Assembly: GCF_058153355.1 (NCBI RefSeq)
Contig: NZ_CM177019.1
DNA: 64,000 nt
Strand: one strand, 5' to 3'
Shown here one piece after another: positions 10-50,005 of this stretch. The notes beneath the pieces were generated by a model. It ran no database searches. It was given only the letters and a program-made list of their open reading frames with translations, and was not told where the DNA came from. The translations under genes were made by a program, and so were the position numbers. Each line of letters begins with the position of its first letter. Within the stretch, counting starts at the first letter, position 1.

Positions 10-1587
10 TTGCCGTTTCTATCAACAGTTTGTTGCATTTGCAGACAATTTGTTGGCGAAAATCTTTGCAGCTTTGCTGATTCTCCCTCATTATTTGAAA
101 TGTGGTTTCACTTTCTGCAATTAAGGTCGGCTTTGAATATCTCCTCTGCTTTACGCCAGGTTGTTCACGGCACTCGCTGGCACGCTAAACGCAAGAGCTA
201 CAAAGTGTTGTTCTGGCGCGAGATAACCCCGCTTGCTGTTCCTATCTTCATGGAGAATGCCTGTGTCCTGTTGATGGGGGTTCTGAGCACTTTTCTGGTC
301 AGCTGGCTGGGAAAAGATGCGATGGCCGGCGTGGGATTGGCGGACAGCTTCAATATGGTCATTATGGCTTTTTTTGCTGCTATCGATCTTGGTACTACTG
401 TCGTTGTGGCATTTAGTCTCGGTAAGCGGGATCGACGACGAGCGAGGGTGGCGACGCGGCAGTCATTGGTGATCATGACGTTGTTTGCCGTACTGTTGGC
501 AACGCTTATTCATCATTTTGGCGAGCAAATTATTGATTTCGTCGCGGGTGATGCCACGACAGAAGTTAAAGCACTGGCGTTGACTTATCTGGAGCTGACG
601 GTACTCAGTTATCCAGCAGCTGCCATCACTTTGATTGGTAGCGGGGCACTTCGTGGTGCAGGGAATACGAAAATACCGCTACTGATTAACGGTAGCCTGA
701 ATATTCTTAATATTATTATTAGCGGCATATTGATTTACGGCCTTTTCTCCTGGCTGGGACTGGGATTTGTCGGGGCTGGGTTGGGGTTAACCATTTCTCG
801 TTATATTGGCGCAGTGGCAATTTTGTGGGTGCTGGCGATTGGTTTTAATCCTGCGCTAAGGATTTCGTTAAAGAGCTATTTTAAACCGCTGAATTTTAGC
901 ATTATCTGGGAAGTCATGGGGATTGGTATTCCCGCGAGTGTCGAATCAGTGTTATTTACCAGTGGTCGGTTATTAACCCAAATGTTCGTTGCCGGGATGG
1001 GGACCAGTGTTATTGCCGGAAATTTTATCGCGTTTTCAATTGCGGCTCTTATCAACTTACCCGGAAGTGCGCTCGGCTCTGCTTCTACGATCATTACAGG
1101 CCGAAGGTTGGGTGTAGGACAGATAGCGCAAGCAGAGATTCAGTTGCGGCATGTGTTCTGGCTTTCCACTCTTGGATTAACGGCCATCGCCTGGCTAACG
1201 GCTCCCTTTGCCGGGGTTATGGCATCGTTTTACACCCAGGATCCACAGGTTAAACATGTCGTTGTGATTCTGATTTGGCTAAATGCTTTATTTATGCCTA
1301 TTTGGTCTGCCTCATGGGTGCTACCCGCTGGATTTAAGGGTGCTCGCGATGCACGTTACGCCATGTGGGTTTCTATGTTGAGCATGTGGGGTTGCCGGGT
1401 TGTAGTCGGTTATGTGCTGGGAATCATGCTTGGCTGGGGTGTGGTTGGTGTCTGGATGGGAATGTTTGCCGACTGGGCTGTGCGGGCCGTGCTGTTTTAC
1501 TGGCGCATGGTTACTGGACGTTGGCTGTGGAAATACCCTAGACCTGAGCCGCAAAAGTGTGAAAAAAAGCCAGTTGTGTCGGAATAA
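10..1587 (+). CDS. yeeO: MATE-family efflux transporter YeeO
   Basis: 525-aa ORF, multi-TM hydrophobic profile; matches remembered YeeO and sits beside tRNA-Asn and yeeN. ORF begins with TTG; true start may be an internal ATG near 100. Confidence 0.8.
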   Translation: MPFLSTVCCICRQFVGENLCSFADSPSLFEMWFHFLQLRSALNISSALRQVVHGTRWHAKRKSYKVLFWREITPLAVPIFMENACVLLMGVLSTFLVSWLGKDAMAGVGLADSFNMVIMAFFAAIDLGTTVVVAFSLGKRDRRRARVATRQSLVIMTLFAVLLATLIHHFGEQIIDFVAGDATTEVKALALTYLELTVLSYPAAAITLIGSGALRGAGNTKIPLLINGSLNILNIIISGILIYGLFSWLGLGFVGAGLGLTISRYIGAVAILWVLAIGFNPALRISLKSYFKPLNFSIIWEVMGIGIPASVESVLFTSGRLLTQMFVAGMGTSVIAGNFIAFSIAALINLPGSALGSASTIITGRRLGVGQIAQAEIQLRHVFWLSTLGLTAIAWLTAPFAGVMASFYTQDPQVKHVVVILIWLNALFMPIWSASWVLPAGFKGARDARYAMWVSMLSMWGCRVVVGYVLGIMLGWGVVGVWMGMFADWAVRAVLFYWRMVTGRWLWKYPRPEPQKCEKKPVVSE

Positions 1588-1640
1588 ACGACAAAGTGCA
1601 GATTATTTCAGCAAACGATTTCAAATTTAAAAAACAGGCT

Positions 1641-1669
1641 TTGACATTGTGGATGGGCGTCGCTAATAT
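1641..1669 (+). promoter_or_regulatory. sigma70-like promoter for tRNA-Asn (TTGACA-17 bp-TAATAT, GC-rich discriminator)
   Basis: TTGACA and TAATAT hexamers with 17-bp spacer about 20 bp upstream of the tRNA. Confidence 0.5.
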
Positions 1670-1687
1670 TCGCCTCGTTCTCACGAT

Positions 1688-1763
1688 TCCTCTGTAGTTC
1701 AGTCGGTAGAACGGCGGACTGTTAATCCGTATGTCACTGGTTCGAGTCCAGTCAGAGGAGCCA
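1688..1763 (+). tRNA. asnW: tRNA-Asn (GUU)
   Basis: 76-nt sequence TCCTCTGTAGTTCAGTCGGTAGAACGGCGGACTGTTAATCCGTATGTCACTGGTTCGAGTCCAGTCAGAGGAGCCA; symbol by synteny between yeeO and yeeN. Confidence 0.9.
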
Positions 1764-2213
1764 AATTTTAGTTTTGAGACATCTCTATGAGTCTCAAGAC
1801 AGTTAAAAAATAAAAATTATTTTTACCCGGTTACCTTGTAAAAAAGTGACTGGGTTTTTTGATTTCTGTGTTTCGTGCGCTTAATCGAGTCTCACGCTTC
1901 AGTTAGCAAATTGCCCCCCAACAGACATCACGATTCGCAAGGTCAAAAAATTCGTTCCGTGAAGTACCGTACAAAGGTATAGAGAAAAATGCCTTATGCG
2001 GGATGTTGCTGTCGCGTTTTTATCGGGAAACTAAACGTAATTGCCACTTTGTCTTCTGTAATCAGAAAAAGAAAACCTGGAATTTTAATAAATATTATTT
2101 CTCTGGGGCCGGTATTTTTATAATCAATATGACGAGTTGAATATTATATTTATTATAAGAATCATATGAGATTAAAGAAATCTGCCATAAAGACAGATTT
2201 CTTTAAAATATAA

Positions 2214-2930
2214 TTAGAGATTTGCGACGTTATGATAAACTTTTTGAACATCGTCGTCATCTTCAAGGGCATCAACAAGCCCTTCAAAGATTTCTAAATC
2301 TTCTGGTGAAAGCTCAACTTCAGATTGAGCGATCATTTCTAATTCTGTTGTTGAGAACTCAGTGATTCCAGCTGCTTTTAGAGCCGCGATTCCTTTATGA
2401 AGGTCAGTTGGTTCAGTATAAATAACAATGTTACCTTCTTCTTCGGTCACATCACGAACATCAACTTCAGCTTCAAGTAAAATTTCAAAAATATGGTCAG
2501 GGTCTGTACCTTTAAATACAATCACACCCGTATTGTCAAACATATAGCTGACAGAACCTGCCGCTCCGATATTGCCGCCTTTTTTATTGAAAATTGTGCG
2601 AACGTTAGCAATCGTACGGTTAACATTTGAAGTCAAGGTTTCAGCGATAATCATTGAGCCATTAGGACCAAAGCCTTCATAACGGCCCTGCACGAACGTT
2701 TCATCTCCGCCGCCTTTGGCTTTATCAATTGCTTTATCAATAACATGCTTTGGAACTTGTGCCTGCTTTGCTCGTTCAATAACGAATTTTAAAGATGTGT
2801 TTAATTCTGGATCGGGTTCACCTTGTTTGGCAGCAGCATAGATTTCTACACCGAATTTTGCATAAATTTTAGACGTCGCACCGTCTTTAGCCGTTTTTTT
2901 AGCAACAATATTGGCCCATTTACGTCCCAC
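2214..2930 (-). CDS. yeeN: YebC/PmpR-family transcriptional regulator YeeN
   Basis: 238-aa ORF starting [12 protein letters not shown], typical of the YebC family. Confidence 0.85.
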
Positions 2931-3271
2931 TGGAATGATCTCCTCGAAAATTTATTTACATTACTGGTAAATCGTTAACATGCGTTAATTCGGCATATTA
3001 TATCATAACAGGAAAAATCTCGTCTATTAGAAATAAAAATATTCTAAATCCATAATCTTATATTTAATCTCATAAAAACTAATGTTGTTGGCGGATTTTT
3101 TTATAATTGTATTTTGAAAGCATACTTGCTTTTAATATATGGAAATCATTAAGGCTATAATAAAACTCGTATCCGCCCCAGGAAGCAAACAGCCTGCTTT
3201 ATTGCAGGCTATTTGCTGGATGACTTACTAAATCCTTCACATCTATTCCTGATAAAAAGGAACAGAACTTA

Positions 3272-4726
3272 TTACCGGAACGGCGGTTCATTAAAGGTTC
3301 GTAATTTACGTGAATGCAGTCGGTCGCCTTCTGCGCGCAGCAAATCGATCGCCCGAATGCCAATTTGCAGGTGTTCGGAAATAGCGCCTTCATAAAAACG
3401 GTTAGCCTGACCGGGAAGTTTAATCTCACCATGCAACGGTTTATCTGAAACACACAGTAGTGTCCCGTATGGCACGCGGAAACGATATCCTTGCGCGGCA
3501 ATGGTTGCACTTTCCATATCAATTGCTACGGCCCGGCTTAAGTTAAAACGAAGTGCAGAAGCTGAGTAACGTAATTCCCAGTTCCTGTCATCTGTGGTTA
3601 CCACAGTGCCAGTACGTAGCCGCTGTTTAACTTCCTCTCCGGGCCTGCCGCTGACTAACTTGGTAGCGTCATAAAGCGCACGTTGCACTTCAGCAATGCT
3701 CGGAATAGGAATATCGGGCGGCAGTACCGCATCAAGAACGTGGTCATCGCGTAAATAAGCGTGTGCAAGTACATAATCTCCAATGGCCTGGCTTTCACGT
3801 AAGCCACCACAGTGACCAATCATCAACCAGACATCCGGGCGCAGCACCGCCAGATGATCGCAGATGGTTTTAGCATTTGACGGTCCCACGCCAATATTCA
3901 CCAGAGTAATACCCTGACCATCGGCGGTAATTAAATGCCATGCTGGCATCTGGTGTTTTTTCCATGCAAGGTCGGAAATGGCTTCTTCTGGCGCTTCGGT
4001 TTCGGCGGTGATCCAGTTCCCGCCAGCACAAGAAAGGGCAATGTAGGGACTATCAGGGTCGAGGATCTGGCTGCATCCCCAACGAACGAATTCATCCACA
4101 TAACGTGTGTAGTTGGTAAACAAGACGAACGGCTGAAAATGTTCAACTGGCGTACCGGTATAATGGCGCAACCGCGCGAGGGAAAAATCGACGCGGCGCG
4201 CATCAAAATGCGATAGCGGGGAGAATTCCGTTGGATGATAAATGCCGTCTGCAGTTTCATCGCCAATTTGCGCCAGTTCTGTTGTCGGGAAGTAGCGAGT
4301 TAATCCAGCGCTCATTGAGCGATCAAGTGTCAATTCAGAGCCATCGATGACATAAGGATAAGGGATTTCATGCTGCGAGGGTTGCACCGAGATATGCGCA
4401 CCATAATCCTGATACAGCAACGTAAGTTGTTCATTCAGATACGAACGAAAGAGAGTAGGGCGAGTAATCGTGGTGGTGTAGCTGCCTGCGTGGGTAAAAC
4501 GACCAAATGCGCGCGTTTTGGGGGGATTTGTTGTGCTACCGTCCCAGGTTACGGTCAGTGATGGATAGACAAAAAGACCTTCTTTACGGGCATTTTCATC
4601 AGGTAATTCGCCACTTTTAATATAGTTGCCAATGGCATTGCGTAAAGCGACTACAGATTGCTCATACAGCGCGTCGAGTTTTTCCAGTGCCTGAGCTGGG
4701 GTCAGACCGGAGCCCTTATTATTCAT
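3272..4726 (-). CDS. amn: AMP nucleosidase
   Basis: ORF 3272-4882 contains the Amn sequence from internal Met (MNNKGSGLTPAQALEKLDALYEQ); start placed at that Met (484 aa). Confidence 0.85.
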   Translation of the reverse strand: MNNKGSGLTPAQALEKLDALYEQSVVALRNAIGNYIKSGELPDENARKEGLFVYPSLTVTWDGSTTNPPKTRAFGRFTHAGSYTTTITRPTLFRSYLNEQLTLLYQDYGAHISVQPSQHEIPYPYVIDGSELTLDRSMSAGLTRYFPTTELAQIGDETADGIYHPTEFSPLSHFDARRVDFSLARLRHYTGTPVEHFQPFVLFTNYTRYVDEFVRWGCSQILDPDSPYIALSCAGGNWITAETEAPEEAISDLAWKKHQMPAWHLITADGQGITLVNIGVGPSNAKTICDHLAVLRPDVWLMIGHCGGLRESQAIGDYVLAHAYLRDDHVLDAVLPPDIPIPSIAEVQRALYDATKLVSGRPGEEVKQRLRTGTVVTTDDRNWELRYSASALRFNLSRAVAIDMESATIAAQGYRFRVPYGTLLCVSDKPLHGEIKLPGQANRFYEGAISEHLQIGIRAIDLLRAEGDRLHSRKLRTFNEPPFR

Positions 4727-34607: not shown

Positions 34608-34697
34608 GGAGAGATGCCGGAGCGGCTGAACGGACCGGTCTCGAAAACCGGAGTGGGGGCAACTCCACCGGGGGTTCAAATCCCCCTCTCTCCGCCA
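34608..34697 (+). tRNA. serU: tRNA-Ser (CGA)
   Basis: 90-nt GGAGAGATGCCGGAGCGGCTGAACGGACCGGTCTCGAAAACCGG...TCTCCGCCA with long variable arm and CGA anticodon. Confidence 0.85.
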
Positions 34698-34749: not shown

Positions 34750-35775
34750 TTACTTGGAATATTTTCTTGGAATATTTTCAGGTAACGGGACATCAAGTGT
34801 CGGTGAAACTTTAACCTTCCTGTCATAGATTAGCACTTGCCCCTCGGTTTTGTGACCAGAGAAAAGTTGCTTATCCCGACTGCTTCCTTCATAGTCTGAA
34901 ATTCCTTTCGCCTTCAGATCATGAAAGGTGAAGTCGGTTAAAATACCTGAAATTTTGCCTGCGCGATTTCTTGCTTCTACCCACATTTCGTTAAAGCCTT
35001 TGTACATATATCGGTTGCCGTATTGATTGCTGATTACATAGGCGGATGTTGGTAACTGTTTTGCTTTTTCGATCGCCGCCTGTAATCGTGGACTCCATGC
35101 TTTTATCTGTTTTTTCCCTGTTTTCCCTTGCTGGATAAAGATCCCGTCGTTTCCAATCTGCTCCCATTTCAGCGATAACACATCGGAAACCCTCGCTGCA
35201 CACAGATAGGCAATTTCCATTGCGATAAAAACAGGAAGAGGTGCAACGCTTAATACTGCCTGGTATTCTTTGTCGGTTACATATCGTTCCCGGTTTTTGG
35301 CCTTGAATTTACTTACACCTGCACATGGGTTAGCCTTCACGTACCCTCGCTCATACCCCCAACTGTAAACGCGGGACATACTGCTTTTTTCATGGTTGGC
35401 TTGCGTTTTACTCTGTTCCCCTCTCTTGTCCATGTATCGACGGATGTGTTCTGGTTTTATGGAATCTGCCGGCACCTTACCGAATACGGCAAGCAACTTT
35501 TTTTGATGTTGCAGATAATCTTTTTGTGTTCTTGGACTGAGGTCACTGTAATAGGCGCTGGCGAGGAATTTTTCCCACAAGCGACCGAATGTCATTGCAC
35601 GATCGCGATTATTTACAGTTTCCTCATACTTTTTCCATAAAGCAGCTAAACCATCCTTGATGGCGGTTAGTGTTACAGATTCTCTGGATGTTGGTTTCCA
35701 TACATAACTATATTTATTTGGGTATACATTTGGAGGTAATTTTTCGTGTTCAGGATTTTTCCTTCGTCTTCCCAT
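34750..35775 (-). CDS. int: phage tyrosine integrase
   Basis: 341-aa ORF abutting the tRNA-Ser 3' end with an excisionase immediately upstream. Confidence 0.75.
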   Translation of the reverse strand: MGRRRKNPEHEKLPPNVYPNKYSYVWKPTSRESVTLTAIKDGLAALWKKYEETVNNRDRAMTFGRLWEKFLASAYYSDLSPRTQKDYLQHQKKLLAVFGKVPADSIKPEHIRRYMDKRGEQSKTQANHEKSSMSRVYSWGYERGYVKANPCAGVSKFKAKNRERYVTDKEYQAVLSVAPLPVFIAMEIAYLCAARVSDVLSLKWEQIGNDGIFIQQGKTGKKQIKAWSPRLQAAIEKAKQLPTSAYVISNQYGNRYMYKGFNEMWVEARNRAGKISGILTDFTFHDLKAKGISDYEGSSRDKQLFSGHKTEGQVLIYDRKVKVSPTLDVPLPENIPRKYSK

Positions 35776-38987: not shown

Positions 38988-39545
38988 TCAACAATGAATT
39001 TTGAGTAATTGCTCTACAGTCATATTTTTAATTGCGCCCCGGTTAACAAGAGTCCATCCCTGTTCTTCCAGATAAAACCGGAAAGTCTCCATGGTACAGA
39101 CCCGTGCGCCATCAGGGACGGTTTCGGTGAATCTGATGTTGCCGCGTTCGTCGAAGTGAACAACCAGGGTGCGGCCATCGCCTGGAATTATTTTGTCAGT
39201 GGGTGGGGTGTTATTCTGGCGCAGCTCGGCCTCCATGCGGTCGAACTCAGCAATGTAGGTTTCTTTGAATGCAGCGGCTTTTTTGCCTGTGAAGCCCATC
39301 ACCAGGAAAACGAAGCCGTTTTTGGTGATTTGGTACATTGGGCGTTTTTCGCCTTTGGCGTCGGTATAGGTGACGGGCTTAAAATTAAGCCGGTTAAACT
39401 CCGGCGAGCATTCGAGAGTTTCGATCTTCTGAATAACGTTTTTGTGCATTTTCCGGAAGAACTCCGCAACCGCAACAGACGTAGTGACAGCGCGACCATT
39501 TTCGATGGTTACGTCAGGGTGAGAAAGGGTAAGGATAGTAGCCAT
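38988..39545 (-). CDS. Rha-family phage regulatory protein
   Basis: Start placed at MATILTLSHPDVTIENGRAVTTSVAVAEFF within ORF 38988-39839. Confidence 0.55.
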   Translation of the reverse strand: MATILTLSHPDVTIENGRAVTTSVAVAEFFRKMHKNVIQKIETLECSPEFNRLNFKPVTYTDAKGEKRPMYQITKNGFVFLVMGFTGKKAAAFKETYIAEFDRMEAELRQNNTPPTDKIIPGDGRTLVVHFDERGNIRFTETVPDGARVCTMETFRFYLEEQGWTLVNRGAIKNMTVEQLLKIHC

Positions 39546-40392
39546 GATGGCAGCCTCGATAGTCAGTTTAAATAACTCACCACCAGAGGTAGCAATCTCA
39601 TGGGTGGTGAGACGCACAGGGTTGCTACAACCGGTGACTACCGAAACCGGCCAGCCTTGCGGCTGCCCTGCACGCCCCACCATAATCTGAATGTGGCTGT
39701 GCTTGACGCATAAAAAAACCGCCTGAGCGCGGTTATGCGCAGTAGTCATCGTCGGGGTAGCAATCCCGGCACCCGTTTTATGAGGTGCAGGTGCACTATA
39801 ATTCCACCCGTTCTGGTTTTCAATAGCTACATTCAACATTTTCTCTTTCCTTTCATCACCGAAGTGAACTTTGTTGATGCGGTGCCTGGTGCCTCCAGGT
39901 GACGTTAACCAGTTAACAATTAACGCCGGAATAAGGGATTTTCCTTACTGTTTTAACTGTTCCGCGTGCGCTGAGCCGCATTCACCGCATCACAAAATTC
40001 ACTTTAAAAAGGGCGGACATCAGCCAGCAATTAAACCGATGCCGCCAAAGGTAATCAACATGGGTTGTTGCAGCGGGGTTGTCGCTCAGGCGTATGGTCA
40101 ACCTGACAACCCGGTGGACATTTGCGAGGAACGGAGAACCCCCGCCATACTTACCGCCGCGCCATTTCGCGGATTGCCACAACCGGAAGCGCACGGTCGA
40201 AGAAAATTTAACGACAGGCTATCTATGAACCAGCAACCTCGCCGTGCGCTTTCGCGTTATGCTCTGACTTTTCAGGGAAATATCCTTTCAGTAAACTGTC
40301 AGTGCCGGATACTCACCCGTGTCCGGCGCACCTACTCCACCTTACCCGTGGAGAACTCCTTAATTACCAACCTTAGCTTCGTTGGTTAGCTA

Positions 40393-41201: not shown

Positions 41202-41492
41202 TTAACTGTTTTTGCCTGGATACTGTCTTCGAGAATGCACAATATTTACTACTTCTATGCTTGATGCTGTTACTCGGTAAAGGATGATGTAGTTAGGATG
41301 AGTTACAATTTCACGAAGACCAAGAACTCGCTCGCTTGGAGGATACAGGTAAGGATGCTCTGTGAGCGGCAAAACGGATGTTTCAATTCGAATTTTCATT
41401 CTGCGTGCTGCCGCGGGATTTTCTTTAGCTATGTAGGCTACGATCTGGCGCAAATCATCACGAGCAGATGGTAGCCATAAAACGGGTAACAT
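41202..41492 (-). CDS. RelE/ParE-family toxin
   Basis: 96-aa ORF with RelE/ParE-like composition, overlapping the upstream 64-aa antitoxin ORF. Confidence 0.6.
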   Translation of the reverse strand: MLPVLWLPSARDDLRQIVAYIAKENPAAARRMKIRIETSVLPLTEHPYLYPPSERVLGLREIVTHPNYIILYRVTASSIEVVNIVHSRRQYPGKNS

Positions 41493-41686
41493 TATTCACC
41501 TCTGTGAGTCGCAGCAGCAATTTGGGCAATAATTTGTTCCATTTCCGCCATTACCTCATCATGCGGAATCGCCGGGCGGGGATCCGCGAGGCTTGCTGCT
41601 ACTTTGGCCCGCAGCCATTCGTTGTAACTATTTTCTTGCTCAACTGTCTCAAATTCTGAAACCATTGGGGAAAGGACTGTACTCAT
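41492..41686 (-). CDS. antitoxin partner of the RelE/ParE-family toxin
   Basis: 64-aa ORF immediately upstream of and overlapping the toxin ORF. Confidence 0.5.
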   Translation of the reverse strand: MSTVLSPMVSEFETVEQENSYNEWLRAKVAASLADPRPAIPHDEVMAEMEQIIAQIAAATHRGE

Positions 41687-41705: not shown

Positions 41706-42206
41706 TTAGGCGCGACGGCCTTTTTGTGCAGCTAACCACCGCGCAACCGTACGATCCATTGATTCTTTTTTATCTTTCATCTCCTGAAGCATGTGCTCTT
41801 GATCTTCTTTCGGAAAAGCTCTGAACGTATGGATTAAATCTCGTTCCATCGGCTCTACGGCAAACGGTAGTTCATCCTCTGTTTGTTCTGTGTCTGCTGG
41901 TAATGCGACTATGTTATCTTGCTGTGGTTCTCGACAATACATCCTTGCAATTTGCAGCAAATCTGCCATGTCTGGCCTGATTGACTCAGGGGGAACTTTC
42001 AGTAAGCCAGCAAACTTTAGAACAGCCTCAAGGTTTAGTGGGGTTTGACCATTTAGGTAGTGACTTACCGCCCCTTGTGTTGAAAACCCCATAATTTCCG
42101 CCGCACGTTCCTGAGTCAATCCCAACTGAGATTTCTTTGCCATCCAGATTTCTTTCAGTCTTCTGGCGGCGTTTAGGTCGGTGTCTGACAGTGATTTTCT
42201 TTTCAT
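41706..42206 (-). CDS. CI-like HTH prophage repressor
   Basis: Start placed at MKRKSLSDTDLNAARRLKEIW in ORF 41706-42236; divergent from a Cro-like gene across a palindrome-rich intergenic region. Confidence 0.6.
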   Translation of the reverse strand: MKRKSLSDTDLNAARRLKEIWMAKKSQLGLTQERAAEIMGFSTQGAVSHYLNGQTPLNLEAVLKFAGLLKVPPESIRPDMADLLQIARMYCREPQQDNIVALPADTEQTEDELPFAVEPMERDLIHTFRAFPKEDQEHMLQEMKDKKESMDRTVARWLAAQKGRRA

Positions 42207-42244
42207 ACATCCAATTCTAATAAGATTGCTAATCACTTTGAAAT

Positions 42245-43003: not shown

Positions 43004-43074
43004 CTGACAATAGCCATATCGAATTGCTTCCGGCAACTCGTGAGTAAAAAGATTCGGTATCAGAAGAGGTGAGT

Positions 43075-44127
43075 ATGGCTAACGCCTGGCTCAGATTATG
43101 GCATGACATGCCAAATGACCCTAAGTGGCGAACAATTGCCAGGGTGTCAGGGCAGACAATTGCAACAGTGATGGCTGTGTATATCCACCTTCTGGTGAGC
43201 GCGTCACGAAATGTCACGACATGTCACGGCGTGTCACTACGTGGTCACATTGATGTCACGACGGAAGATTTAGCAAGTGCGCTTGATGTGACGGAAGAAG
43301 TAATTGATTCAATTTTACAGGCAATGCAGGGGCGGGTACTTGATGGAGATTTAATCTCTGGATGGGAAAAACGCCAGGTACTGAAAGAGGACAATGGCAA
43401 CGTTTCACAAACCGCGAAATCCCCGGCAGAGCGCAAGAGAGCGCAGCGCGAGAGGGAAAAATTACGAAAACAGAATGAGGGGGGGCATGACGAGTCACGC
43501 ATATGTCACGACATGTCACGACGAGTCACGACAGATAAAGATACAGATAAAGATACAGATAAAGAATTAAACCCCACACATAACGCGCGCGTGCGCGAGA
43601 GTGCTCCGACCAGTGAGTCGAATGGCGTGCTGTTGCAGGCAGCGGAACCTGATTACCTGGAAGGCCTGAGCGAACCCATCGGGAAATTTCCGATGACTGA
43701 TGGCTGGCATCCGTCGCCGGATTTTCGACGGCGGGCAGCTCTGTGGGGAGTAGCTCTGCCGGAGCCGGAATTTACACCAGCTGAACTTGCCGCCTTCCGG
43801 GACTACTGGGCAGCGGAGGGTAAAGTTTTCACGCAGGTTCAGTGGGAGCAGAAATTCGCCCGTCACGTAAATCACGTCAGGGCGCAGGTTAAACCAGTCA
43901 GCAAGGGGGTGAGCCATGCAGCAGCACCAGGCGGCACCGCATCACGGGCAGTTCAGGAAATTCGGGCAGCACGTGAGCAGTGGGAACGTGAAAACGGATT
44001 TATCAGCGACGGAAACGGCGTGGAAGCTGTGGGAACTCATGGGGGAGGTTTATTCGAACCGCTGGACCCGGAAGAACGGGGCCGCACCTTCGAAGCTCTG
44101 GATTGCACAGATTGGCGTGATGACTGA
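43075..44127 (+). CDS. phage replication initiation protein (O-like) with internal iterons
   Basis: Start at ATG preceded by GAGGTG; coding sequence contains GTCACG repeat clusters and GATAAAGATACA tandem repeats. Confidence 0.5.
43190..43570 (+). repeat. candidate phage origin iterons (GTCACG clusters; tandem GATAAAGATACA)
   Basis: Two clusters of GTCACG-type repeats plus three tandem 12-mers inside the O-like gene. Confidence 0.5.
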
Positions 44128-44581
44128 GCAGCAAATCCGACAGGTCTGCCGCCAGTGCATGGACCGCTGCCGGGCGGGTGAAACATGGCCTCCGGACCTG
44201 GCTGAGTTTGTGGCGCTGATTTCGGAAAGCGGGGCCAATCCATTCGGTCTGACGGTGGATGCCGTGATGGAGGAGTACCGCCGCTGGCGCAATGAGTCCT
44301 GGCGATACGACGGAAGCGATAAATACCCGTGGTCTCAGCCTGTGCTGTATCACATTTGCCTCGAAATGCGGGCAAAAGGGGTTGAGCGTCAGATGACCGA
44401 AGGGGAGTTAAAACGACTTGCAGAACGGCAACTGACGAAATGGGCAAAACATGTTGGTATGGGTCTGAGTGTTCCACCCGTCCGGCGGCAACTGGCAGCC
44501 CCCAAACGTCCTGCGGGACCAACACCAATTGAGTTGCTGAAACAGGAGTATGAACGCCGGAAGGCAGCTGGTTTTGTATGA
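44120..44581 (+). CDS. phage replication-associated protein (P-like position)
   Basis: Start placed at [13 protein letters not shown] overlapping the O-like stop; assigned by position only. Confidence 0.3.
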
Positions 44582-46173: not shown

Positions 46174-46568
46174 TGAAAAATGAAACCGACAATGTTATCA
46201 CCCTGGTACAGCCAAAACGCGATGAAGAGAAGCTGCTGAACATTACAGTAACTGACAGAAAAAACTACATACAACAGAGATGTAAGCATCGGGCTGTTGA
46301 GGTTCACGAACCGGATCGCGTTATCCTGTGTTTACAGTGCGGATGTGCTGTAGACCCTTTCCAGTACGTTCTGCAGTGCGCGAACGATGGCGAGGCTGTG
46401 GTGAAAGAGATTAAGCAGCTTCATAACAGGCGTGATCAGCTTCGCGAATCCGTTGCCAACCTTGAGCGCGAAGAAAAGAACGCCAAAGCACGGTTACGAG
46501 CAGCAAGGACTGCAATATTGTATGCGGAAAATGATCTTAAAAATATTGAGCAGGAGGTGAATCGATGA
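46173..46568 (+). CDS. hypothetical phage protein
   Basis: 131-aa ORF coupled to the upstream gene; coiled-coil-like C-terminus. Confidence 0.35.
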   Translation: MKNETDNVITLVQPKRDEEKLLNITVTDRKNYIQQRCKHRAVEVHEPDRVILCLQCGCAVDPFQYVLQCANDGEAVVKEIKQLHNRRDQLRESVANLEREEKNAKARLRAARTAILYAENDLKNIEQEVNR

Positions 46569-46772
46569 GCTGGCCTGAAGCATTCACAACGGTAGGAATT
46601 GCGATGGCGGTGGCGCTGGTGGTGTATTCGATTTGCCGCTGGGGATAAATCGCCGAAAAAAGATCCCGACACAAACATGAGCCGGAATCTTTGATTTATA
46701 TAGCCTACGAATCCGCCAGTAAGAGAGGGGGCGGACGGTTTATTCTAACACCGGAATGATGTGTGTAAAAGT

Positions 46773-47072
46773 TTATAAGAAATCGGTTTCATAACTTTGC
46801 CCACCATGATAGATACCGACAATAAAGACTTTTCTGCCATCAACGGCAAAAGCAATAATCGTTCTGTGGCGGAAATGAGTTACCCGCATTCCCTGGCGAA
46901 TATCATCGCGTTTATTGCCCCGATGCGGGAATGTAGAAAACCCATCAAGATAATCAAGAAGCGCATTGGCATAATTGTCAGCAATAACGCTCCCTGCTTT
47001 CTCCGTTATATATCTGTGCAGGTCGATTATCTGTTGTTCGGCCTCCGGAGTAATGATGACTTCATATGTCAT
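46773..47072 (-). CDS. ParE/RelE-family toxin
   Basis: 99-aa ORF MTYEVIITPEAEQQIIDLHRYI, typical ParE N-terminus. Confidence 0.7.
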   Translation of the reverse strand: MTYEVIITPEAEQQIIDLHRYITEKAGSVIADNYANALLDYLDGFSTFPHRGNKRDDIRQGMRVTHFRHRTIIAFAVDGRKVFIVGIYHGGQSYETDFL

Positions 47073-47077
47073 GCAGA

Positions 47078-47335
47078 TTACTTCCCGGATCGAATCGCGG
47101 CGCGAACCTGTGAAATGGAGCGTCCGTTGTTTGGGTTTTCGCGGATAGAATCAAGAGAGGGGGCGGCTGAATGCGTTAACCATGCTTCGATTGCTTTATC
47201 GCGCTCATTCAGTGCGCGAAGCCCTTCACGAATGACCTCGCTTTCTGAAGCATAGGCACCGGAAGCCACACGGGCGCGCACCATGTCAGCCATCTCGTTA
47301 GTTAATGTAATGCTGAATTGTTGGGTTGTACGCAT
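47078..47335 (-). CDS. ParD-family RHH antitoxin
   Basis: Start placed at MRTTQQFSITLTNEMADMVRARVASGAYASESEVIREGLRAL within ORF 47078-47398. Confidence 0.7.
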   Translation of the reverse strand: MRTTQQFSITLTNEMADMVRARVASGAYASESEVIREGLRALNERDKAIEAWLTHSAAPSLDSIRENPNNGRSISQVRAAIRSGK

Positions 47336-47473
47336 GGTAAACCTCACAGAGTAGGATAGAACACTATTCGATGATAGCACGCTGCCTGTTGACGACAACA
47401 GAAATCAGAGACAATATTGCCGCACGCCAGCCTGAACAACTGGCACCTGCTGCGTCAGCAGAGAAAACTGATG

Positions 47474-47749
47474 GCGCACGATACCAAATTACACAATTCT
47501 GATAATTCAGCCGTCTTTGCCAGCAGGCACGGGCGGCGTACTCACGCATTCAAATATGACTGGTATCAGCATGACCCCTGCACCGAAGAACAGGCTGAAT
47601 GGCTGATTCAGCGCTACCGCAGACACGGATACGAGATTAAGAAAGCCCTCAGCCTCGATTATCGTCACTGGATAATCTTCGTCAGGCTCCCTTATTCCGA
47701 ACGCCCACCGCGTCCGTCCCGCACATTCCAGCAACGCATCTGGAGGTAA
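47474..47749 (+). CDS. hypothetical phage protein
   Basis: Start placed at internal Met of ORF 47417-47749. Confidence 0.3.
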   Translation, partial: AHDTKLHNSDNSAVFASRHGRRTHAFKYDWYQHDPCTEEQAEWLIQRYRRHGYEIKKALSLDYRHWIIFVRLPYSERPPRPSRTFQQRIWR

Positions 47750-47750
47750 C

Positions 47751-48806
47751 GTGCGGGTATTACTTAGACCTGTTCTGGTACCGGAACTCGGGCTGGTGGT
47801 TCTTAAGCCTGGTCGTGAATCCATGCAGGTATTTCATAACCCTCGCGTGCTGGTGGAGCCGGAACCGAAAAGCATGCGTGGTCTGCCGTCCGGAGTCGTG
47901 CCTGCCGTTCGCCAGCCGCTGGCGGAGGACAAATCATTACTGCCATTTTTCAGCGATGAGCGTGTGATTCGTGCTGCAGGTGGTGCTGGTGCACTGTCTG
48001 ACTGGCTGTTGCGTCATGTCAAATCCTGCCAGTGGCCTCATGGTGACTATCATCACAGTGAAACCGTCATACATCGTTACGGTACCGGCGCGATGGTGTT
48101 GTGCTGGCACTGCGACAACCAGCTGCGTGACCAGACCTCCGAATCACTCGGGCAACTTGCTCATCAAAACCTGTCAGCATGGATGATTGACGTCATACGC
48201 CATGCAATGAATGGCACACAGGAGCGGGAATTATCGCTGGCTGAATTATCCTGGTGGGCGGTCTGCAATCAGGTGGCGGATGCGCTACCAGAGGCAGCAT
48301 TACGTCGTTCTCTGGGGTTACGTGCGGAAAAAATCCGCTCGGTGTACCGCGAAAGCGACATCATACCGGGAGAACAGACAGCCACCAGCATCCTGAAACA
48401 GCGCACAAAAAATCTTGCGCCGCTGCCTCACGCCCACCAGCAAAACCCGCCACAGGAAAAGACGGTGGTCAGCATTGCCGTTGATCCGGAGTCACCGGCT
48501 CAGTATCTCCAGCGCCAGAAACCACAACGGGAAGAGATGCCCGTATACACGCGCTGGGTAAAAACGCAGAAATGCATGACGTGTGGCAATCAGGCAGATG
48601 ATCCGCATCACATCATTGGTCATGGACTGGGAGGGATGGGAACAAAGGCTGATGATTTGTTTGTTATTCCGCTGTGCCGTAAATGCCATAGCGAACTACA
48701 CGCCGGGGTAAAAGATTTTGAAGAAAAACACGGCAGCCAGCTGTTGTTGCTGATTCGTTTTTTAATGCACGCGAGAAATTCGGGTGTTCTGAAGTGGAAA
48801 GCATAA
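47751..48806 (+). CDS. phage protein with Cys/His-rich C-terminal motif
   Basis: C-terminal CMTCGNQADDPHHIIGH...CRKCHSELH; start uncertain. Confidence 0.4.
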   Translation: MRVLLRPVLVPELGLVVLKPGRESMQVFHNPRVLVEPEPKSMRGLPSGVVPAVRQPLAEDKSLLPFFSDERVIRAAGGAGALSDWLLRHVKSCQWPHGDYHHSETVIHRYGTGAMVLCWHCDNQLRDQTSESLGQLAHQNLSAWMIDVIRHAMNGTQERELSLAELSWWAVCNQVADALPEAALRRSLGLRAEKIRSVYRESDIIPGEQTATSILKQRTKNLAPLPHAHQQNPPQEKTVVSIAVDPESPAQYLQRQKPQREEMPVYTRWVKTQKCMTCGNQADDPHHIIGHGLGGMGTKADDLFVIPLCRKCHSELHAGVKDFEEKHGSQLLLLIRFLMHARNSGVLKWKA

Positions 48807-49187
48807 ATGACTGAACGTACAGAATTCGTTTTGCCTTACCCGCCGACGGTGAACACTTACTGGCGGCGTCGTGGTGGAACGTACTTTATATCGGAAACGG
48901 GAAAGCGTTATCGCCGGGATGTGGCGCTTATTGTCCGTCAGCAGCGACTGAAATTAAGCCTGTCCGGAAGACTGGCGATAAAGATTATTGCAGAGCCACC
49001 GGATAAGCGCCGTCGTGACCTGGACAATATCCTGAAGGCACCACTGGATGCGCTGACGCATGCCGGACTACTTATAGACGACGAGCAGTTTGATGAAATC
49101 AATATTGTGCGCGGTCAGGTCGTTCCTGGTGGGCGACTGGGCGTGAAGATTTACGAAATAATGCATGACGGGCAGGTCAAAAAATGA
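48807..49187 (+). CDS. rusA: RusA-family Holliday junction resolvase
   Basis: 126 aa with RusA-like core (PDKRRRDLDNILKAPLDALTHAG). Confidence 0.75.
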   Translation: MTERTEFVLPYPPTVNTYWRRRGGTYFISETGKRYRRDVALIVRQQRLKLSLSGRLAIKIIAEPPDKRRRDLDNILKAPLDALTHAGLLIDDEQFDEINIVRGQVVPGGRLGVKIYEIMHDGQVKK

Positions 49188-50005
49188 AGCTGGAAGATTT
49201 ACCGAAATACTATTCCCCAAAATCGCCAGGCCTGACTGATGCATCCGCCTCGACGTCAAAAGATGCGCTGAGTATCACTGATGTGATGGCTGCGCAGGGT
49301 ATGACACAAAACCTGGCTGAGATGGGATTTTCTGCGTTCCTGGGGAAAATGGGCATCAGTATGAATGACAGGGCGCGGGCAACAGAATTACTGGCAGATT
49401 ATGCACTCAGTCGGTGCGATCGCGTGGCGGCGTTAAGAAAACTTCCGGCAGAAATAAAACCGACAGTGATGCGCATTATGGCTTCGTACGCTTTTGAGGA
49501 TTATGCCCGCAGCGCAGCGAGTAAAAAGCAATGCCCTTGTTGCCGGGGGGAAAAATTTATTGAAAGCGAGGTTTTTACAAACAAGGTTCAGTATCCGGAT
49601 GGCAAGCCGCCAGTATGGGCAAAGTGTACGAAAGGTGTGTATCCGTCTTACTGGGAAGAATGGAAAAAAGTCCGGGAGGTGGTGAAGGTTTCCTGTCCTG
49701 AATGCAAAGGGAAGGGGGAGATTTCCACTGCCTGTAAAGACTGTCGTGGGCGTGGTGTCGCCATTCATCGTGAAGAGTCGGAAAAACGGGGCATGCCTGT
49801 TATCAGGGACTGCCAGCGTTGTGGCGGTCGGGGCTATGAAAGGCTGCCATCAACGGAGGCATTTAATGCCATATGCAAAGTGACGAGTGCTATTACACTT
49901 GATACGTGGAAAAAATCAGTGAAGCGCTTTTACGATACGTTGGTGGTTCGGTTTGACATTGAAGAGGCATGGGCGGAGCGGCAGTTAAAGAGGGTAATGC
50001 GATAG
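49184..50005 (+). CDS. late-gene antiterminator Q-like protein
   Basis: 273 aa with several CxxC zinc-finger pairs; lies between rusA and the lysis cassette. Confidence 0.55.
   Translation: MKLEDLPKYYSPKSPGLTDASASTSKDALSITDVMAAQGMTQNLAEMGFSAFLGKMGISMNDRARATELLADYALSRCDRVAALRKLPAEIKPTVMRIMASYAFEDYARSAASKKQCPCCRGEKFIESEVFTNKVQYPDGKPPVWAKCTKGVYPSYWEEWKKVREVVKVSCPECKGKGEISTACKDCRGRGVAIHREESEKRGMPVIRDCQRCGGRGYERLPSTEAFNAICKVTSAITLDTWKKSVKRFYDTLVVRFDIEEAWAERQLKRVMR

Follow-up and report, generated by a model that had tools for sequence, protein, structure and literature searches.

In the canonical ParD–ParE systems, such as those of RK2/RP4, Caulobacter (ParDE1, 3kxe), Mesorhizobium (ParDE3, 5ceg/6x0a), Vibrio (ParDE2, 7r5a) and Mycobacterium tuberculosis (ParDE1, 8c24), one operon codes first for an antitoxin with a ribbon-helix-helix (RHH) N-terminus and a C-terminal toxin-binding tail, and then for a toxin of the ParE fold. 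Here we describe a locus with the same organization in a lambdoid prophage, at positions 46773-47335 of a 64,000-nucleotide stretch (hereafter the window) of contig NZ_CM177019.1, RefSeq assembly GCF_058153355.1. Our analyses indicate, with a probability of roughly 85%, that its two genes, parD and parE, constitute an intact, self-contained type II ParD–ParE toxin–antitoxin (TA) cassette, inserted as a moron in the nin region of the prophage. Its toxin is predicted to have the fold of the canonical ones, with template modelling (TM) scores of 0.79-0.83, but is only ~20-25% identical to them, and its carrier is a lambdoid prophage rather than a plasmid or a chromosome. By analogy with the same systems, gyrase poisoning and autoregulation are putative properties of this clade.

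The closest plasmid-borne relatives identified in a plasmid search are KluA/KluB, a 'plasmid stability' pair of the IncP-1beta plasmid R751 (NC_001735), which matches 97% of the length of ParE with 47% identity and has an adjoining ParD-family gene. This pair differs by its plasmid context, by 53% of the toxin residues and by having no isrK, C4 or antirepressor (ant) neighbour in the annotation lines. Like our cassette, the PaaR2–PaaA2–ParE2 system of the O157:H7 prophage CP-933P (5cw7, 3zbe; PMC8630535) provides a prophage-borne ParE-family toxin, and a copy of it is present in the prophage studied here. However, it has three components, with an unrelated PaaA antitoxin and the cI-like regulator PaaR2, and it is located in the immunity region. 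ParE_SO–CopA_SO of the Shewanella prophage CP4So and PfiT–PfiA of Pf4 (PDB 9w3a) associate a prophage-borne ParE-fold toxin with an RHH/CopG-type antitoxin, and both have been linked to prophage maintenance or production (CP4So: PMC8706911). They belong to different phage types and hosts and have low sequence identity to our pair, although PfiT is among its top structural matches. Lastly, relBE-hokD of the K-12 Qin prophage is TA cargo in the same slot as our cassette, upstream of orf90-ydfU(DUF968)-Q, and includes a toxin of the RelE/ParE superfamily. Nevertheless, RelE is an mRNA endonuclease (mRNase) with a RelB antitoxin, and the Qin genes are co-oriented with the early-right genes instead of being antisense to them.

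A preliminary description of the window, made from its letters, had placed a ParD/ParE pair antisense to the early-right operon. Both open reading frames (ORFs) are present at the coordinates claimed, exact to the base, in the order antitoxin then toxin and separated by 5 nt according to the ORF table. In homologues the gap ranges from -4 to +6 nt, with otherwise the same geometry. Since both proteins match ParD or ParE profiles, we consider the pair confirmed. ParD scores 53.8 bits against the NCBIfam signature TIGR02606 ('ParD family antitoxin'), above the curated cut-off of 46.2, and also matches Pfam PF03693 (E = 2.3e-7) and phrog_6494 (E = 1.7e-56). A sequence search of the PDB returned ParD1, ParD2 and ParD3 structures as relatives (3kxe, 7b22, 5ceg, 8c24). 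The family is large, with 2657 word-index matches, many of which are named ParD1/3/4. Thus, by its sequence, the antitoxin is a member of the ParD (COG3609, RHH) family. Residues ~6-51 form the DNA-binding and dimerization part, and the C-terminal ~34 residues the presumed toxin-binding tail. In the clade, the first 50 residues hardly vary whereas the C-terminus does, a pattern that would fit a conserved operator and a co-evolving toxin interface. A longer version of parD, starting at a TTG codon at 47398, was considered and rejected, as this start is not conserved and is unused in RefSeq annotation.

ParE matches Pfam PF05016 (ParE_toxin) with an E value of 8.9e-11 over the entire model (positions 1-89 of 89), and phrog_5232 ('toxin') with an E value of 8.7e-43. 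As both PF05016 and the name 'RelE/ParE family' given by the NCBI annotation pipeline PGAP cover gyrase poisons and mRNases alike, we used structure to distinguish ParE from RelE. A full HMMER scan of 1.84 billion representatives yielded 1199 relatives, and an AlphaFold2 model was built from an alignment of 83 sequences. The residues that are nearly invariant in this alignment are all kept in our ParE. In a Foldseek search of the PDB with the model (mean predicted local distance difference test score, 91.8), ranks 1 to 23 were all occupied by ParE-family toxins, with TM scores of 0.72-0.84. They include Mesorhizobium ParE3, Pseudomonas aeruginosa ParE, M. tuberculosis ParE1 and ParE2, Vibrio ParE2, Caulobacter ParE1, Escherichia coli ParE2, PrpT and PfiT. 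The predicted structure thus places the 99-residue toxin in the ParE branch of the RelE/ParE superfamily, not in the mRNase branch. From what is established for the ParE family, it is presumed to be a DNA-gyrase poison.

Neither protein is truncated relative to its homologues. Compared with their counterparts in a Salmonella prophage (locus L097), the ratios of non-synonymous to synonymous substitution rates (dN/dS) are 0.05 for parD and 0.10 for parE. In comparisons with Yersinia, Cronobacter and Erwinia, synonymous sites are saturated for both genes: the proportions of synonymous and non-synonymous differences are 0.70-0.75 and 0.09-0.16, respectively, for parD, and 0.79-0.83 and 0.20-0.23 for parE. 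The low dN/dS ratios, and the low proportions of non-synonymous differences at saturated synonymous sites, therefore indicate strong purifying selection on parD and parE, which are thus not chance ORFs. Together, the profile matches, the confident structure model and this selection identify the pair as an intact type II ParDE module.

The preliminary description had also proposed a moron arrangement, with the pair on the strand opposite to the surrounding replication and nin-like genes. This holds well: the flanking early-right genes are all on the plus strand, the promoter and terminator of the cassette are its own and are conserved, its occurrence at one slot varies between related prophages, and related phages carry it at other positions. 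parDE is antisense each time, in the early-right region of prophages of Shiga toxin-producing E. coli (STEC) as in the early-left region of phage ArgO145. Homologues with ~63-80% identity occur in Yersinia, Salmonella, Cronobacter, Erwinia and Izhakiella, all in prophages, in the early-left region (as in a Yersinia prophage), in the nin region or just after Q (as in Salmonella), and each is oriented against the phage genes around it. In Enterobacter, a copy is found among insertion sequence elements. The slot directly upstream of orf90-DUF968(ydfU)-Q harbours relB-relE-hokD-rem in K-12 Qin (locus L100, 2223..4840), hokD in an O157:H7 prophage (locus L101, 2719..4371) and parDE in prophages of the window type. 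These comparisons identify it as a recurrent TA cargo site of lambdoid prophages. At the right boundary, the Salmonella version is homologous up to 47431 and an O157 prophage devoid of parDE from 47425 onwards, so that the alignments define 47425-47431 as the recombination junction with the leader of orf90-DUF968-RusA-Q. Thus, judging from these sequences, the cassette has the features of a moron, namely its own promoter and terminator, antisense orientation and polymorphic presence and location.

Further cargo was observed near the homologues. hok/sok type I TA loci, detected with Pfam HOK_GEF and Rfam sok, are found at positions 1541-1865 of locus L090 and 2416-2735 of locus L092. They lie 1-2 kb from parDE-isrK-ant in Cronobacter and Erwinia prophages, and therefore several addiction modules cluster there. 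In the widespread Salmonella version of the cassette (L097, 3428..4591), an inserted gene for a 387-residue HSDR_N-domain protein separates the C4 RNA from the ORF6N antirepressor gene; it would be a moron within a moron.

The cassette spans positions 46563..47431 and comprises a membrane-peptide ORF, a bidirectional terminator, parE, parD and a regulatory region of ~90 bp (Table 1). The DNA common to the window, STEC711 and ArgO145 extends from 46563 to 47418 (856 bp). The membrane-peptide ORF is intact in Salmonella, with 6 synonymous versus 3 non-synonymous codon changes, and has no annotation in the RefSeq loci examined. A simple scan for terminators failed to detect that of parDE, while two sites that it reported within coding sequence were unconvincing. 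The assignment therefore rests on folding of the minus strand, which gives a strong hairpin at 46659-46692 (inverted repeat I5; z = -2.5 over the 151-nt 3' region), and on covariation, E. coli and Salmonella differing there by one compensatory base-pair change. Promoters were called by consensus matches only. GTCGTCAA and the extended -10 TG-n-TA are invariant in E. coli, Salmonella, Yersinia, Cronobacter, Erwinia, Enterobacter and Izhakiella. In the 5' untranslated region (UTR), AATA-TGTTC-ATCC is invariant in an alignment of nine divergent loci, and the block GAATAGTGTTCTATCC occurs only once in the window. The Shine-Dalgarno GAG is also invariant across the aligned loci, despite the saturation of synonymous sites. 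We infer that GTCGTCAA and AATAGTGTTCTATCC are candidate sites of ParD autoregulation. Base composition gives no mark of foreign origin, with a GC content of 0.45-0.51 for the cassette versus 0.46-0.57 for the flanks, and GC skew flattens at the cassette, as expected for genes on the opposite strand.

Table 1. Positions of the parDE cassette and of other prophage features in the window
Feature	Position	Strand	Remarks
tRNA	34608-34694	+	directly next to integrase; presumed attachment site
Integrase	34750..35775	-	
Rha-family antirepressor-like gene	~38988..39542	-	after isrK and C4 RNA
C4 antisense RNA	39600-39687	-	
isrK small RNA	39712-39788	-	
ParE2	41202..41492	-	PDB 5cw7/3zbe relatives
PaaA2	41492..41686	-	PDB 5cw7/3zbe relatives
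PaaR2 (cI-like repressor)	41706..42236	-	PDB 5cw7/3zbe relatives, lambda CI match
Cro/YdaS-like and YdaT-like ORFs			after the repressor; named by position and annotated relatives
DnaT-like replisome organizer	43069..44127	+	
P-like ORF	~43916..44581	+	named by position and RefSeq annotation of the equivalent; no NCBIfam match
27-residue hydrophobic ORF (MSWPEAFTTVGIAMAVALVVYSICRWG)	46565..46648	+	left cassette edge; ATGA-coupled to the preceding gene
Terminator hairpin	46653..46692	U-tract on -	parDE intrinsic terminator; also a hairpin for plus-strand early-right transcripts
parE	46773..47072	-	99 codons plus stop; ORF table
parD	47078..47335	-	85 codons; ATG at 47335; GAGG 6 nt upstream
5' UTR block GAATAGTGTTCTATCC	47354..47369	-	between -10 and Shine-Dalgarno; imperfect palindrome; second candidate ParD/ParDE operator
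parDE promoter	47364..47404	-	-35 TTGTCG (47398-47393), 16-nt spacer, extended -10 TG-c-TATCAT (47379-47371)
Inverted repeat CTGTTG-TCGT-CAACAG	47386-47401		overlaps the parD -35; candidate operator
Divergent promoter remnant	47389..47431	+	TTGACG, 18 nt, AATATT (47389-47418); -35 overlaps the parD -35
orf90	47471..47749	+	
DUF968/HNH protein	47751..48806	+	
RusA	48807..49187	+	
Q-like antiterminator	49184..50005	+	named from annotated homologues

Two further features of the cassette were observed. Just past the stop codon of parE, a strong promoter-like site (TTTACA-16-TAGAAT with TG) runs from 46769 to 46742 on the minus strand. Downstream of it come a hairpin whose loop is rich in C and U (46712-46735) and then the terminator. 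This region, 46653..46769 on the minus strand, is conserved in the Salmonella locus L097 and could encode a small RNA of ~85 nt or simply be the 3' UTR of parDE. In addition, an exact 14-nt direct repeat, AAGAGAGGGGGCGG, is found at 46721-46734 and 47153-47166 on the plus strand, the first copy belonging to the hairpin that follows parE and the second to the coding region of parD. Such a repeat is unlikely by chance (0 expected, 100 shuffles). Both copies are present in ArgO145 and only one in STEC711.

The prophage appears to begin at ~34.6 kb, with the DNA to the left being outside it. Several small early genes separate the P-like ORF from the antisense parE and parD genes, and the lysis and structural genes follow Q. 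The isrK-C4-Rha genes at 38988..39788 (minus strand) are an immI-like module of the P1/Gifsy type in the early-left region, 7.5 kb from parDE. The presence of two TA modules in one prophage, which the preliminary description had considered worthy of note, was borne out in part. There is indeed a second module, but it is PaaR2–PaaA2–ParE2 and not another ParD/ParE pair. Because its PaaA2 antitoxin is not a ParD and its ParE2 is distant from the cassette ParE (32% identity over only 37 residues), parDE is the only true ParD/ParE pair in the window. Nor is the combination unusual, as two of the three other examined E. coli prophages with the cassette also have both modules: in STEC711 (a Stx2k prophage) and 06-00048, parDE is found at the same position, with a ParE-family module next to the repressor, and in 88-3493 the cassette is present without the second module.

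The cassette is already known from annotation. A 901-bp query retrieved it at ≥80% coverage in 327 of 5426 complete E. coli genomes, with ~98% identity among the matches listed, and in all 15 of the matches listed PGAP names a RelE/ParE toxin and a ParD antitoxin. The accessions in the examined loci are WP_000220600.1 and WP_001260977.1. At least 1000 public contigs carry the exact ParD sequence, under the name ParD. For ParE, the exact sequence corresponds to two NCBI E. coli entries, with close variants on hundreds of contigs. Some O157 records name an orphan ParD 'kluA', and in ArgO145 and two Stx2a phages the genes are annotated as toxin and antitoxin. These phages were the only ones retrieved when ParE was searched by tblastn against 50,697 phage records, of which four matched (ArgO145 under two accessions, and the two Stx2a phages). 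ParE is thus rare in deposited phage genomes though common in prophages. Altogether, the cassette is annotated in hundreds of genomes and catalogued as two PHROG families.

By analogy with the established ParDE systems of RK2, Caulobacter, Vibrio, Pseudomonas and M. tuberculosis, the following mechanism can be proposed. In the lysogen, parDE would have its own sigma-70 promoter, whose activity would not depend on phage repression. Dimers of ParD would bind the operator(s) near the -35 and in the 5' UTR, leading to autorepression, and the C-terminal tail of ParD would wrap around ParE and neutralize it. Upon prophage loss or arrest of synthesis, the labile ParD would be degraded and ParE freed. 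Free ParE would poison DNA gyrase, causing double-strand breaks and SOS induction, and the cell would stop growing or die. Overall, the prophage would be stabilized by addiction, and the system may also abort infection by other phages. Some results nevertheless weigh against an ordinary ParDE addiction module. No NCBIfam family matched ParE in the profile search, and PrpT and PfiT, which are structural matches with the ParE fold, have been linked to other phenotypes. In the literature library searched, we found no study that experimentally characterizes this ParDE clade, the nearest being a note on orphan ParD and HigA of EHEC phages (PMC12502783). Finally, no family of PADLOC-DB was matched at E ≤ 0.01 by ParE, ParD, PaaR2, PaaA2 or ParE2.

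The last result also bears on the possibility that the main benefit of the cassette is anti-phage defence, or superinfection exclusion by abortive infection, with the same ParDE mechanism but another selected role. A growing number of TA systems have been found to take part in phage defence. A moron with its own promoter, in a slot that carries other TA cargo, would suit such a role, as would the second ParE-family TA system of the same prophage. However, because no PADLOC model matches ParD or ParE, a role in defence finds no database support, and to our knowledge ParDE is not an established defence family. We regard defence as an unlikely main benefit, though it is the best of the alternatives to an intact ParDE addiction cassette.

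Somewhat less likely still, and compatible with a genuine TA pair, is the idea that ParD also serves as a phage regulator by repressing a divergent promoter whose -35 overlaps that of parD. Stress or proteolysis that removes ParD would then free ParE and, without involvement of the phage repressor, allow the antirepressor or Q to be expressed, making the TA pair a trigger of induction. Read on the opposite strand, GTCGTCAA gives TTGACG. In seven of seven loci, a TTGACG-18-TATAnT sequence is found at -36 to -7 relative to the isrK small RNA defined by Rfam. Because this sequence ends 7 nt before the 5' end of isrK in all seven, we identify the divergent promoter as PisrK. According to Rfam searches, parD lies back-to-back with isrK and the C4 RNA in nine of 12 distinct contexts, in most of which an antirepressor-type gene (ORF6N, Bro-N or P22_AR_N) follows. 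Only 89-94 nt separate the parD ATG from the 5' end of isrK. Furthermore, TTGACGACAACAGATATCCGGGG is conserved across genera, and isrK promoters without an adjoining parD lack it. The invariance of the DNA-binding half of ParD in the clade also favours a regulatory role.

Relatives without a toxin point in the same direction. In the Stx2a phage LC727840 (locus L003, 2299..3550), an orphan ParD, 86% identical to ours, is back-to-back with isrK-C4-antirepressor, and a 93-residue lipoprotein-like ORF and a HigA-like helix-turn-helix gene occupy the place of ParE. Orphan ParD and HigA antitoxins of enterohaemorrhagic E. coli phages have been described (2025 paper, PMC12502783). ParD without ParE in Stx2a phages would suit a regulator kept for its own sake. 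A precedent is provided by immI of P22, in which the RHH proteins Mnt and Arc are established to control ant. In relatives of the cassette, the RHH gene back-to-back with an isrK/C4-led antirepressor operon recalls immI of P22 (Mnt/Arc-ant), immI of P1/P7 (C4 RNA-icd-ant) and isrK-orf45-anrP of Gifsy-1 (PMC4825925), matching both the Mnt/Pant layout and the logic of C4 control. Nevertheless, ParD is a TA antitoxin, not a Mnt or Arc protein, and the window has no isrK-C4-ant beside parD.

Indeed, no immI-like antirepressor control module adjoins parD in the window. Rfam searches detected no isrK or C4 RNA within 46500-47800, even at E ≤ 10, with only chance snoRNA-like matches. Next to parD, isrK-C4-ant is gone, and the TTGACG-18-AATATT remnant, fused at 47425-47431 to the leader of the Q operon, faces orf90-DUF968-RusA-Q. 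That the window keeps this remnant might favour a regulatory role, but the remnant differs from the relatives in half of the conserved spacer and has a weaker -10 (AATATT). Moreover, the window contains no second copy of an operator-like motif beyond chance, including at the isrK-C4-Rha module, on which ParD might have acted in trans; the promoter of this module (TTGAAA-17/18-TATAGT) differs from the parD-linked one. Linkage over 90 bp may also persist by descent alone, and promoters assigned by consensus are a further reason for caution. An extension of the same idea is that ParD would be both antitoxin and repressor of the divergent promoter, its degradation linking the release of ParE with CI-independent expression of the antirepressor or of Q, and of Shiga toxin. 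The TA pair would then be a stress-sensing induction switch and not a simple addiction module. In the examined Stx2k and Stx2c prophages, the window-type cassette is located upstream of Q and stx2. We hold this extension to be slightly more doubtful than the regulatory role itself.

It is very unlikely that the toxin is a RelE-like, ribosome-dependent mRNA endonuclease instead of a gyrase poison. The Pfam and PGAP names fail to tell ParE from RelE, and the folds are related, with RelBE2 at rank 25 of the Foldseek search. However, the RelE, YoeB, HigB and YafQ toxins, with TM scores of 0.40-0.64, are clearly outranked by the ParE-family toxins. In addition, the best matches of the toxin in the PDB sequence search are ParE3 (6x0a) and ParE1 (8c24), JGI names a 65%-identical homologue of it ParE1/3/4, and its partner is a ParD-type RHH antitoxin with a score above the curated cut-off. 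Finally, although cryptic prophage regions are common in E. coli and the window-type cassette no longer has the adjoining isrK operon, we give almost no credence to the pair being a decaying, non-functional remnant. The selection analysis (dN/dS of 0.05-0.10) already largely refutes this reading. Moreover, both ORFs are full length, the promoter, Shine-Dalgarno sequence and terminator are conserved, and the cassette is ~98% identical in 327 genomes.

An intact ParDE cassette at this position is in itself a minor finding, further illustrating that the nin region of lambdoid prophages can carry TA cargo. Gyrase poisoning of the ParE type induces the SOS response, and SOS triggers the induction of Stx phages. 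As Q and stx2 follow the cassette at a distance of ~3 kb in several STEC prophages, the finding is of modest practical relevance. Should it be true that ParD controls the divergent promoter, a TA pair would be wired directly into the lysis-lysogeny decision.

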